Shown: positions 13,953 to 27,923 of the stretch, piece after piece
Numbering within the stretch: the stretch's first letter is position 1
Layout: each line of letters starts with the position of its first letter
IMG/VR virus record: IMGVR_UViG_3300017792_000001
Span: 104,697-168,696 of that record
Direction: 5' to 3' (one strand)
Length of the DNA stretch: 64,000 nucleotides
DNA from: a virus
Taxonomy: Duplodnaviria > Heunggongvirae > Uroviricota > Caudoviricetes
The notes under the pieces: model-generated
What the model was told of the DNA's origin: nothing
The model's database searches: none
The model's input: only the letters and a program-made list of their open reading frames with translations
Made by a program: the position numbers and the translations under genes

Positions 13953-14092
13953 CCGGAGAGTACGGCAGCAAGAAGCGTATTGGGTATTGGCGAGAACTGG
14001 GTTACAACCCAATCGACAATACAGACCTCAATGAGTTGCTGGTGATGGCTAGCAAACAAGCAAAGGAGCAGAAGAATGAATCCACTACCTAG
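13880..14092 (+). CDS. Small hypothetical protein overlapping both neighbours
   Basis: Fills the gap before thyA and has a protein-like C-terminus; start is uncertain. Confidence 0.35.
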   Translation: MHMAEQRCGTIRGCYIRFLFWAGLAGEYGSKKRIGYWRELGYNPIDNTDLNELLVMASKQAKEQKNESTT

Positions 14093-15272
14093 CGGTCGCG
14101 TAATGCCGATCGCATTGCGTAACGAAGAAGGTTATCTGACGGCCGCCGAACATCTGCTGTACAACGGCGCGCTCAAGGCAGATCGTACTGGCACTGGCAC
14201 TCGTGGCAAGTTCGGTGAGATTCAGGTTGAGTACGACCTGATCAACGAAGACGGTGATCCAACCGTGTGTCTACCTTCGACCAAAGAAGTCTTCTGGGAT
14301 AAAGCAGTCGTTGAGTTGGTCTGGATGCTCAGTGGTTCGAATCGCCTGAAGTTCTTGATCGACCACGGCGTGACCTTCTGGAACAACTGGGTAATCCCAG
14401 GTACCGAGGTCTGGGAAACGCTTGACTGGCAGCAACGCCGCGACAGCATGACCAAGGTGCAGAAAGCCAAGTGGGCTACTTGGTTCGACGAATTCACTGG
14501 CGGTCAGACCGAAGACGGTTTCCCAGAGTTCACCCAAGAGCAGTTCGATACGATCACTGCGAAGCTCGACGAATGGGGCATCGGTGATACACGTCTGATC
14601 GACGGCGACCTTGGTCCTGTGTACGGCGTTCAGTGGCGTCACTGGCCAGATAATCGTTTGATCGACCCGTCGGTTATCTACGGCAGCGATGCGTGGGAGA
14701 AGTACGGCAGCAAAGGCTTCGTACATCTGGGTACCGCAGACAACGGGCAGTTGATGATTGGTCGTGTCATTGACCAGATCAAGAAGCTGTAGACTGCACT
14801 CGACACCCGCGACCAGAAGGCTGCACGCCGTGTTGTACTGACCGCATGGAACGCAGCGTTCATCGAAGAAATGGCTTTGCCTCCGTGTCACACGCTCGCT
14901 CAGTGGTGTATCGAACCAGACGAAGCTGGCGAAGATCGTCTGCACTGCAAACTCTACCAGCGTTCGGGTGATTGGTTCTTGGGCGTGCCGTACAACGTCG
15001 CGTTCTACTCCATTTTCACTCACCTGCTGTGCGCCATGTGCGATCTGAAAGCTGGGCGTCTGTATCACACAGTTGGTGACGCGCACATCTACACGAACCA
15101 CGTAGACCAGATCAAGCAACAACTGGCAACGCCGATCAACCCAGAAAGCAAGCCTGTGATTCAGTTGAAGCGCGCTGAATTCGGCATGTCTATTCTGGAA
15201 CACAAGGTCGAAGACATCGTGATCAAGGGCTACATTCCTGGTGCGTTCATCCCTGCTCCGGTGGCCGTATGA
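14076..15272 (+). CDS. thyA: Thymidylate synthase interrupted by a single in-frame TAG at 14790-14792
   Basis: DRTGTGT, ELVWMLSG, GDLGPVYGVQWR, IDQI, RRVVLTAWN, LPPCH, YQRSGD...GVPYN and GDAHIY motifs. ORFs 14076-14792 and 14871-15272 share a frame with 26 sense codons between them. Confidence 0.92.
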
Positions 15273-25351: not shown

Positions 25352-25642
25352 CTAGTCACGGTCTTGTAGAATGCTATCGCTCAATCCGTTGACTTGACTC
25401 TGGGTCAAGCCGTGCTTCTTGAGACGGTTCAGGTGGTCTTCAACCGCTTCTGCGGCTTGAGCGCGCTTGCCGTAGTCGCGTTCTTCCTCAGTCCTGGGAC
25501 GTGGTGCATTCTCCCAGGCCTTGATAGCGGTGTTCAGCGCCTTACTTTCATCATGCAGCCCTGACTTCTCCATAGCATCCATCAAGTCGTTCGATGGGAA
25601 ACGGCCACGAGGTTTGCTGGCGAAGTCATGCAGGTGCGTCAA
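25352..25642 (-). CDS. ORF without a clear RBS; candidate -1 frameshift extension of 25681-26388
   Basis: The frame stays open upstream through the stop of the preceding gene; only TTG or weak ATG starts are available. Confidence 0.55.
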   Translation of the reverse strand: MTHLHDFASKPRGRFPSNDLMDAMEKSGLHDESKALNTAIKAWENAPRPRTEEERDYGKRAQAAEAVEDHLNRLKKHGLTQSQVNGLSDSILQDRD

Positions 25643-25693
25643 GGGCGAAGTCTGGCGGGCAACAGGCTTGCTATCACCCTTTACTTCTTTGGG
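25641..25693 (-). promoter_or_regulatory. Candidate -1 programmed frameshift signal
   Basis: Slippery C_CCA_AAG (25693-25687), a 5-nt spacer, then an 8-bp stem AAGGGTGA/TCGCCCTT. Confidence 0.5.
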
Positions 25694-26388
25694 GCTCTCT
25701 TTGCCCCTTTGGCAATCACATCCTTGATCTTGTCCTTGAACTCCCTGATGTCTGCCTTGCGTGCAGCGTAGTGTTCATCACTAGGCTTGGTGCGCGATTG
25801 CGTGTATTCAAGGGACTTCAAACCTGCTCGCAGACTCTTGAGAATCTTCTGGTCTTTGAGCGTCAGGTTGGCTTCATTCTCCGCTGCATCTTTCGCGTCG
25901 ATTTCGGCGAAGGCTTTCTTCAACGCGGGCGCCTGCTTAGCAACCTGCTTACGCAGTGCAGCTTTGCCTGCTGGGCTGGTAGATGGAGCTTTGCCTGGCT
26001 TCTTAGACCCTGGCTTGATGCCTGCTTCTTTAGCAATCTGACCAATGGTCTTGCCGCCAACGACGGTGTCCAAGGTCTGGCGAATCATGCCGCCAATGAT
26101 CTTGCTGCTACTGTGGCGAGGAGAAGTCAGTTTAGCCTTCAACTCTTTGATCTTGCCCAAGAACTCTTTGTCCTTAGCGCGGGCTTTCTCTTTCTGAGGA
26201 CCTTTCAGTGTAGCAATGGTCTTCTTGTTGCGCTCACGGTCGACACGGAGTTTCTCGACCTTGTCCATGATCTTCAGGTCGCCTTGCAACACCTTGACAC
26301 GATCACGACGTTCTTTATCTGTGGCGAAACTGTACTTTCCGGCAGTCGCTTCAAACGTGCCGTCGAGGTAAATGCGAATACGCGCCAT
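25681..26388 (-). CDS. Lys-rich basic protein with the conserved leader MARIRIYLDGTFEATAG
   Basis: AAGGAG SD; Lys/Ala-rich composition; leader shared with two neighbours. Confidence 0.8.
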   Translation of the reverse strand: MARIRIYLDGTFEATAGKYSFATDKERRDRVKVLQGDLKIMDKVEKLRVDRERNKKTIATLKGPQKEKARAKDKEFLGKIKELKAKLTSPRHSSSKIIGGMIRQTLDTVVGGKTIGQIAKEAGIKPGSKKPGKAPSTSPAGKAALRKQVAKQAPALKKAFAEIDAKDAAENEANLTLKDQKILKSLRAGLKSLEYTQSRTKPSDEHYAARKADIREFKDKIKDVIAKGAKRAPKK

Positions 26389-26457
26389 GAGGCACTCCTT
26401 GAATTATACTCTATGACGCACAACGGCCCAGTTATTAGCTAGGCCGTTGGGTATCGC

Positions 26458-27504
26458 TTAACGTTTCTTGAGCGCAGCCAGTTGACCTTTGATGATCTTG
26501 ATCTGCGAGAGCAGTTGAGCGCTCTTGGTTTTGTTGCCAGCCGTTTGAGCAGCAGTACGCTGGTCGCGCAGAGCAGTCAGGCGTTTCGTCAGAGTAGCAA
26601 CGGTCTTGCCTTTCGCGGCTGCATCACCCATGCCGCTTGGCTTGCCGACGATCTTCTTGGCGCCGCCCATGTGCTTGGCAGCACCAGGCTTGACGATGGC
26701 GCGCTGATTCGCAGGAGACTTGCCAGCACGCAGACCGCGCAGAGCTTCACGTTGCTTTTCCAGTTCTTCGCGAGCGCGAATCAGCTTGGCGCCTTTGAGT
26801 TCGCCAGTAGCGATGCGAGCTTTCACCGCTTTGATTTCGGCCAGGGTGTTACCGATTGCACCACGCGACGGCTTGGTAGCGTGCTTGGTAGCAGTATCAG
26901 CAGCTTTGCCCGACGGCTTGGCTACTGGAGCCTTGGCACCTGGCTTATTGCTGACTGGAACGAGTGCAGTCTTGCCGTGATCGCGCAGTTCGCTACGGAT
27001 ACCGCGAGTCACAGTACCTGCGATCTTCTTGGCACCACGATCGAATGCAGCGCCGTGATCTTTCGGAGCGCGTACGGTCTTCAATCGCTGAGGGTTGCGA
27101 CGCGGATCGCCCGTCTTGTTACCGCGAGTCAACTTTGGAGCTTTGGCTGCCGCGCGTGCTTTCTCGTAGCGCTCAGTCGCGGTGTTGATGCGTGTACGGA
27201 TCAGTTCGGGCTTGATGAACTTGCCACCGGAAATCGTACCGGTCAAGGTTTTGATCGCGTCGTTGATCTTCGCTACACGCTTGGTGTGAGCGATAGCAGC
27301 CGCTGGACCCGACTTGTGGCTATTGCGCAGGCGTTCTTGCTGGATGCGTTCGCGGGTTGCGCGCAGCTTGACGATCTTGTCGATGATCGACAAATCTTTC
27401 TTGAGCGCGGTGATGTTCGCTTTCAGTTCAACACTGGTAGCGGCAGTGGCTTCAACGTGAGCGGTCTCGAAAGTACCGTCGGCGTGGATTCGGATAAGGG
27501 CCAT
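26458..27504 (-). CDS. Lys/Arg/Ala-rich basic protein with leader MALIRIHADGTFETAHVEATAA
   Basis: GAGG SD; histone-H1-like composition. Confidence 0.8.
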   Translation of the reverse strand: MALIRIHADGTFETAHVEATAATSVELKANITALKKDLSIIDKIVKLRATRERIQQERLRNSHKSGPAAAIAHTKRVAKINDAIKTLTGTISGGKFIKPELIRTRINTATERYEKARAAAKAPKLTRGNKTGDPRRNPQRLKTVRAPKDHGAAFDRGAKKIAGTVTRGIRSELRDHGKTALVPVSNKPGAKAPVAKPSGKAADTATKHATKPSRGAIGNTLAEIKAVKARIATGELKGAKLIRAREELEKQREALRGLRAGKSPANQRAIVKPGAAKHMGGAKKIVGKPSGMGDAAAKGKTVATLTKRLTALRDQRTAAQTAGNKTKSAQLLSQIKIIKGQLAALKKR

Positions 27505-27512
27505 ATATACCT

Positions 27513-27923
27513 CTATTTGGTTTGGCGTTTCTGTAGGCGACGGATGCTCATTTCGAGACCCTTGAGCTTTTGTTCCTCGTAACCCAGTTGCTTAACTAGG
27601 CCATCGAGTTTCTCTTGGCTGACAGGCCCGAGCAGCGGCTTGCCTTCCAGTTTCTTGATGTCCAGCTTGAGCATACGAATAACGGACATCTGGTCAGTGC
27701 GTTGCTTTTGGAGCTTCGCAACGTCCACAGTTACCGGTGGTTGACCTGGGCGTTTCTTTGGCGCGGATTGCATCAGTTTCTCCATGAGCGCTTGCCCACG
27801 GGGAGAATGCGGTGAAAGCCCTTGAGCGCGTACAGCGGCACGAACATCAGCAAGTCCATCATCGACGGTCTTGGCTGCTGTGGCTTCAAACGTACCGTCG
27901 AGATAGATGCGAATGGCAGTCAT
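27513..27923 (-). CDS. Basic protein with leader MTAIRIYLDGTFEATAA
   Basis: TGATG overlap with the ligase stop; shared leader. Confidence 0.8.
   Translation of the reverse strand: MTAIRIYLDGTFEATAAKTVDDGLADVRAAVRAQGLSPHSPRGQALMEKLMQSAPKKRPGQPPVTVDVAKLQKQRTDQMSVIRMLKLDIKKLEGKPLLGPVSQEKLDGLVKQLGYEEQKLKGLEMSIRRLQKRQTK

Follow-up and report, generated by a model that had tools for sequence, protein, structure and literature searches.

A candidate programmed -1 frameshift at the end of a leader-bearing basic protein gene in a PaBG-like jumbo phage

Outside the genes of tail assembly chaperones, frameshifting is rare a priori. In phage lambda the slip that joins G to T takes place on the heptamer G_GGA_AAG and the extent of G-T shifting is a few percent. 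In T7 gene 10A/10B and in the Listeria phages PSA and A118, frameshifting near the 3' end yields a minor virion protein with a C-terminal extension. In dnaX and IS911 a Shine-Dalgarno-like (SD-like) element placed upstream of the slip site, at a spacing of the 10-nt type, stimulates -1 shifting, and the slippage itself is driven by the weak pairing of tRNA-Lys(UUU) with AAG. Among the systems of T4 internal proteins and of giant-phage propeptide proteins, we know of none that adds cargo by frameshifting, and no literature was found that links frameshifting to the internal proteins of jumbo phages. As for the heptamers, C_CC.A_AA.G, G_GG.A_AA.G and A_AA.A_AA.G are the three most efficient ones in E. 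coli; they give about 0.3% shifting without a stimulator, and C_CC.A_AA.G combined with the IS3 pseudoknot reaches 54%, the highest value measured (PMC4066793).

Here we analyse a stretch of 64,000 nucleotides (the window), which represents bases 104697-168696 of a complete 277.6-kb virus genome with direct terminal repeats. The nearest cultured relative of this virus is the Pseudomonas jumbo phage PaBG, with 67% identity at the level of the NAD-dependent DNA ligase. In the window, a C_CCA_AAG heptamer lies at the very end of a gene coding for a basic protein of 235 aa, and a slip on it would give rise to a fusion of 345 aa.

Locus and leader-bearing genes

The window and PaBG have a gene order in common, in which the ligase is followed by several proteins with a shared leader, then by a glycosyltransferase and, three genes on, by the head maturation protease. 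This is not the position of a tail assembly chaperone, which is the interval between tail tube and tape-measure genes; the neighbours found are the NAD-dependent DNA ligase, the leader proteins, the glycosyltransferase and the head maturation protease.

Three genes carrying the leader stand in tandem on the minus strand, at 27513-27923 (136 aa), 26458-27504 (348 aa) and 25681-26388 (235 aa). Their leaders, at 27885-27923, 27466-27504 and 26350-26388 respectively, follow the pattern M-x-x-IRI[YH]xDGTFE, and no further ORF of the genome displays it. The three proteins are otherwise dissimilar and very basic (pI about 10-11.4), the 235-aa protein, hereafter P0001, having a pI of 10.2 and 26% K+R. 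A similar leader is observed in PaBG gp266 (MALIHINADGSFEAVAA) and in four tandem genes of the IMG/VR relative L006 (MGKIIIRADDSFEAVAA). Furthermore, the distant relatives retrieved through the glycosyltransferase (L005-L011, 64% identity) and PaBG have three to four leader proteins each. A short Glu-ended leader, basic proteins and a nearby prohead protease make up, at the level of pattern only, what is seen for capsid-targeted internal head proteins, and by this analogy the shared leader looks like a capsid-targeting or cleavage leader. Pfam and PHROGs contain no family for P0001-P0004, and the PaBG virion proteomics paper gave no match for the terms gp265, gp266 and gp267 (PMC7412058).

The 69-nt spacer in front of the 235-aa gene (26389-26457, minus) contains an 8-bp hairpin CAACGGCC...GGCCGTTG (~26421-26449), a TATAAT at 26403-26408 and the SD AAGGAG, and the gene may have a promoter of its own there. 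In the junction region, no promoter or terminator is predicted on this strand.

Four tRNAs are encoded by the phage outside the window (genome 187459-187862), namely two tRNA-Lys(UUU) (genome 187459-187779), a tRNA-Asp(GUC) and a tRNA-Ala(CGC), and the main Lys codon of the phage is AAG (3123 AAG vs 1368 AAA). At another place in the window, the thymidylate synthase frame (14046-15272, plus) is broken by a single in-frame TAG, beyond which the same frame resumes through RRVVLTAWN; the interruption corresponds to a substitution and not to an indel. No suppressor tRNA for this codon was detected by ARAGORN, and TAG is the rarest stop of the genome, at 23 of 223 long ORFs.

Table 1. Features at and around the junction, in coordinates of the window
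Feature	Position	Strand	Remarks
Zero-frame gene P0001, 235 aa	25681..26388	minus	own SD AAGGAG at 26395-26400
N-terminal leader, 13 codons, MARIRIYLDGTFE	26350..26388	minus	also on the tandem genes 26458-27504 and 27513-27923 upstream
SD-like AAGGGG	25704..25709	minus	10 nt 5' of the heptamer; -7.0 kcal/mol with anti-SD
Slippery heptamer C_CCA_AAG	25687..25693	minus	X_XXY_YYZ phase of ORF 25681-26388
Spacer AAGTA, 5 nt	25682-25686	minus	
Zero-frame stop TAA	25681..25683	minus	one codon past the heptamer
Stem-loop 5 nt past the heptamer	25641..25681	minus	~-13.9 kcal/mol in a 50-nt fold; not significant vs background
-1 frame reading, 111 codons + TAG	25352..25687	minus	codons 1-15 (25687-25643) linker-like; helical domain from 25642
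TTG, first start-like codon (ATG/GTG/TTG) of the -1 ORF	25640..25642	minus	aligns with the ATG of P0013; 96-aa call of JGI and ENA
Head maturation protease	21596-22369		matches phrog_18299 at 1.8e-103

The slip site and its surroundings

The 235-aa ORF ends with GCC CCA AAG AAG TAA. A sequence-only reading of this DNA had proposed an in-frame C_CCA_AAG just before the stop, followed by a 5-nt spacer and an 8-bp stem with one G-U pair, in the canonical geometry of -1 frameshifting. The heptamer, the spacer and the stem were all found as described, the stem being formed by the arms AAGGGTGA (25681-25674) and TCGCCCTT (25648-25641) around a 25-nt loop. As regards the geometry, the positions, the phase and the open frame are correct, but the stem is statistically like background. 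Indeed, the 101-nt fold of the site displays a z of +0.78 relative to shuffled sequences, and among random coding positions the minimum free energy of the 40, 50 and 60 nt past the heptamer takes the 7th, 16th and 38th percentile; the downstream stem does not stand out from chance. A competing hairpin GGGTGATAG/CTGTTGCCC is found at 25679-25657 with -9.8 kcal/mol, and the 3' arm of the stem overlaps the TTG at 25642 in its first two bases. A pseudoknot between the CAAGC loop and a downstream CUUG was considered and rejected as sterically implausible.

Upstream of the heptamer, the AAGGGG at a dnaX-like spacing is an element that the sequence-only reading had not mentioned. Against random coding positions, its pairing with the 16S 3' end ranks in the top 5%, the real SDs of this genome being in the range of -6 to -8 kcal/mol. 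Since AAGGGG is encoded by conserved A-K-G codons, we give it light weight.

Over the whole genome, in-frame X_XXY_YYZ heptamers amount to 101 in 72,900 codons, with only 10 of the X_XXA_AAG type, among them 6 CCCAAAG. The genome was further scanned for the same geometry, defined as a heptamer no more than 30 codons from a stop with at least 40 -1 codons past that stop. Eight hits were obtained, and besides the present site two with efficient heptamers were inspected. In one case, a small membrane protein has G_GGA_AAA at genome 30843-30855, four codons ahead of its stop, and this leads into a 113-codon -1 ORF; this ORF has its own SD and ATG with an ATGA overlap, which makes it an ordinary gene pair and a chance look-alike. 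In the other case the upstream ORF is spurious. About one chance look-alike per genome is therefore to be expected, and in neither of these two hits is a real upstream gene combined with a start-less downstream ORF.

Three other routes into the downstream sequence were rejected: transcriptional slippage, because the runs are too short; readthrough of the TAA, because the zero frame meets a TGA 13 codons on; and non-canonical in-frame starts behind the GGTGAT just past the stop, because none exist.

The -1 reading frame and its relatives

The -1 frame is open from 28 codons upstream of the heptamer onward and, from the GAA at 25687, reads EVKGDSKPVARQTSPLTHLHDF... until the TAG at 25354-25352. 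Hexamer coding scores are positive in this frame only, with +65 for the core, +11 from the TTG to the first ATG and +6 from the slip site to the TTG, while the other two frames score from -11 to -129. Taken as a whole, the 108 nt from the slip site to the first ATG score +13 to +16, which corresponds to the 13th percentile of coding windows and to the top 2% of intergenic-like windows; for the 15 codons from the slip site to the TTG, a very short segment, the coding likelihood ratio is ~1.6. When 1.84 billion representatives were searched with HMMER, two relatives were recovered, P0012 (73 aa, 82% identity) and P0013 (96 aa, 62%), and beyond these a 90%-cluster database returned only this genome's own calls. 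The AlphaFold model of the ORF is a helical bundle (pLDDT 80, pTM 0.70) with helices from residue 20 onward, hence a structured part that begins just past the TTG; residues 1-19 have a low score, and the alignment there consists of the query alone. The -1 ORF is genuine coding sequence for a conserved protein. Its product is near neutral (pI ~6.2-6.6), unlike the basic carrier, and among its tryptic peptides GDSKPVAR is encoded upstream of the TTG and QTSPLTHLHDFASK spans it.

The model gave no match at E<=0.001 with Foldseek against PDB and BFVD and no usable match in the ESM Atlas, and no paralog of the ORF is present within the genome. In a Rosetta-stone test, the ORF showed no homology to the modules that P0006, P0007 and P0011 carry in frame at their C-termini. 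Moreover, an in-frame fusion of both parts is absent from every database searched (1.8 billion representatives and a search for longer proteins).

At the protein level, the homologs of the 235-aa protein are mosaics made of the leader, a basic coiled-coil part and an exchangeable C-terminal module. P0006-P0011 carry in-frame C-terminal helical modules behind the basic part, which provides a precedent for an architecture of leader, basic part and helical domain, and in P0011 a further helical domain is joined in frame after the same module. The [AP]KK-stop ending is found in P0001 and in 6 of the 7 retrieved homologs (P0005-P0010), whose last modules differ. As it is also seen in family members that apparently lack the -1 ORF, this ending alone is no evidence of a frameshift signal. 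P0005 (223 aa, 67% identity) ends at the same place as P0001 with ...KK-stop, and so does P0009, the closest C-terminal homolog, whose C-terminal half is 89% identical. P0009 finishes with AKGAKK compared to AKGAKRAPKK here, the four codons RAPK that hold the heptamer being absent, and if P0009 precedes P0012 the slip site would not be conserved.

The end module of P0001 occurs in exactly three proteins (P0001, P0005 and P0009) and the -1 ORF in exactly three lineages (this genome, P0013 and P0012). The identity ranks of module carriers and ORF carriers match, and P0005 and P0013 both come with a longest contig of 15,087 bp. Given these matching counts, ranks and contig figure, the module and the ORF are probably paired and would travel together, as judged from the proteins. 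No such gene pair was recovered in the DNA of relatives when P0001, P0002 and the alignments A2 and A3 were searched against viral, metagenome and genome contigs and a phage collection, and no homolog of the -1 ORF is present in the records of L005-L011 and PaBG.

At the syntenic spot of PaBG (L004:7451-7951, NC_022096.1 178080-178580), gp265 ends with a TAG and the frame is open for 64 codons up to the ATG of gp264. This ATG, as annotated, has no SD, and a TTG at L004:7463, located 9 nt past the TAG behind AGGGA, would open a 162-aa protein; the start of gp264 is probably mis-annotated. The gp264 region has no homology to the -1 ORF.

How the downstream frame may be expressed

In the frameshift reading, a fraction of the ribosomes on the 235-aa gene would slip back one base on C_CCA_AAG (25693-25687), tRNA-Pro re-pairing from CCA to CCC and tRNA-Lys from AAG to AAA. 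The shifted ribosomes would bypass the TAA and continue through a short linker (EVKGDSKPVARQTSP) into the conserved helical domain of ~95 residues, resulting in a 345-aa fusion while the major product would still be the 235-aa protein. The sizes of 235 and 345 aa (234+111) and of 348 aa for the adjoining leader protein, which the sequence-only reading had put forward, hold. Since the heptamer is efficient in E. coli, some fusion protein is expected physically, whatever its biological status. We infer that shifting would reach a useful level; in E. coli the heptamer yields from ~0.3% alone up to 54% with a strong pseudoknot. An open -1 frame, the best heptamer in the right phase, the SD-like element and the stem at canonical spacings, and the start-less conserved ORF support this reading. 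Doubt comes from the low prior outside tail chaperones, the non-significant stem, the ATG of P0013 and the lineage-specific four-codon segment. A rough likelihood calculation gave 17-80% for the frameshift depending on the assumptions, and we consider the chances of a fusion made at C_CCA_AAG beside the 235-aa protein to be evenly balanced. Of the original interpretation, the geometry stands, and the conserved start-less ORF and the best heptamer support it, but the stem is statistically indistinguishable from background and a separate 96-aa gene, to which the P0013 ATG points, is a nearly equal rival.

According to this rival, the 235-aa protein ends at the TAA and a separate helical protein of 96 aa starts at TTG 25642, which we regard as a serious possibility falling somewhat short of even. 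The TTG start would perhaps be coupled, the ribosomes terminating at the TAA melting the stem over the TTG, and the heptamer would be a by-product of the A-P-K-K ending of the family with at most a trace of fusion. The ATG of P0013 stands opposite the TTG without gaps and both proteins are then 96 aa long, the TTG is the start chosen by the JGI and ENA callers, and the folded part of the model, from residue 20, begins just past it. In the same direction point the non-significant stem, the [AP]KK endings as a family trait and the efficient heptamer found by chance near a stop at genome 30843 (G_GGA_AAA). However, no SD is found before TTG 25642, nor before ATG 25582 and ATG 25573, in agreement with the initial description of a 111-codon frame without a good RBS or ATG of its own. 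The 13 nt upstream of the TTG pair with the anti-SD at -0.3 kcal/mol compared to -6 to -8 for neighbouring genes, and the 25 nt upstream form a GC-rich, paired context. A missing SD is in itself compatible with a gene here, as 66-80% of the long ORFs of the genome have an SD of at least 4 nt and ~20-34% have no detectable one, but TTG is rare as a start, with 4 of 81 among SD-backed starts. The alignment with P0013 hardly discriminates and is nearly neutral, because a TTG start codon and a Leu TTG facing a relative's Met have roughly the same probability. The callers also disagree on the very same sequence: Logan takes the ATG at MEKSG (73 aa, P0017) where JGI and ENA take the TTG (96 aa).

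The Logan calls for this genome (P0017) and for the relative (P0012), which both begin at MEKSG, favour a separate gene of 73-76 aa starting from ATG 25582 or 25573 (MDAMEKSG/MEKSG) after a non-coding spacer of ~100 nt. We consider this very improbable: neither ATG has an SD, both Met are replaced by Leu in P0013 and hence unconserved there, with homology reaching 22 residues further upstream, the coding score 5' of the ATGs is positive in this frame only, and such a start would cut the predicted helix 35-44. The case that the sequence-only reading had named as a refutation, one continuous 345-aa ORF split by an indel that arose in the CCCC/AAA runs during sequencing or assembly, has in our view hardly any chance of being true. 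The break does fall at short homopolymers, and the genome has one other interrupted gene, that of thymidylate synthase (TAG 14790-14792). Yet the runs are short, with 4 C and 3 A, thyA is interrupted by a substitution, and the 235-aa protein is identical in three assemblies (JGI, ENA and Logan). Moreover, the ...KK-stop has the same position in P0005 and P0009, so that relatives also stop at [AP]KK, and the relatives of the ORF are always separate short ORFs, with no fused protein in any database searched.

If the frameshift is real, the range of phage frameshifting would no longer end with tail chaperones and shell proteins but take in an internal protein, leader-tagged and histone-like, of a PaBG-like jumbo phage. 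The expression of a conserved start-less ORF and the entry of a leaderless domain into the capsid would both be accounted for: the leader would send the protein into the prohead, and through the fusion a few copies of the helical domain would get into the capsid. A more elaborate reading, which we hold to be unlikely, is one of cargo loading, where the cleavable leader brings the abundant 235-aa protein into the prohead, a few percent of the copies acquire the leaderless, acidic helical domain through the slip, possibly tuned by tRNA-Lys(UUU), and a fixed small number of this domain is packaged and injected with the DNA. If true, this jumbo phage would be the first in which recoding sets the stoichiometry of an internal or ejected head protein. 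A link between the pair of phage tRNA-Lys(UUU) and the slip site is speculation. If there are two genes, the downstream ORF should be annotated with the TTG start, and the locus is a caution that chance can align a stem and an SD-like element with the best heptamer at a gene end. Under either reading, the ORF of 96-111 codons is a real conserved gene which is shortened by some gene callers.

Among described systems, E. coli dnaX (tau/gamma) has, like this locus, an SD-like element ~10 nt upstream, a heptamer of the X_XXA_AAG type that tRNA-Lys(UUU) decodes and, within a few nt downstream, a stem-loop. In dnaX, however, the shift shortens the product through an immediate -1 stop, whereas here it would add 111 residues, and the dnaX signal is conserved and proven, with a strong hairpin and an efficiency of ~50%, while the present one is a candidate with a weak stem (~-14 kcal/mol, not above background). 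Lambda G/GT and the tail assembly chaperones share with it a -1 slip at an X_XXA_AAG that precedes the stop by a few codons, a scarce, C-terminally extended morphogenetic protein and a downstream ORF without a start. Unlike these genes, which are sited between the tail tube and tape-measure genes, the present one lies between DNA ligase and glycosyltransferase, with the head maturation protease three genes away, and its carrier is a basic leader-bearing protein. The extended proteins of T7 10A/10B and PSA/A118 are shell or tail-tube proteins, in contrast to a putative internal, DNA-associated head protein here.

The T4 internal proteins and the giant-phage propeptide proteins are similar in having a short Glu-ended leader (…DGTFE|A) on dissimilar basic proteins near the head maturation protease, but there is no sequence homology to T4, and the likeness is one of pattern, known here from the genes. 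In phage SPN3US, gp245 cleaves after A-X-E (PMC10052503). IS3/IS911 orfAB has the same heptamer class, stimulated by an SD on the upstream side and a structure on the downstream side (PMC4066793); it differs in giving a transposase fusion of a mobile element, and the present locus has no homology to it and no transposon context. By analogy, the signal architecture at this gene end would be like that of dnaX and IS3/IS911, and its outcome like that of lambda G/GT or T7 10A/10B.
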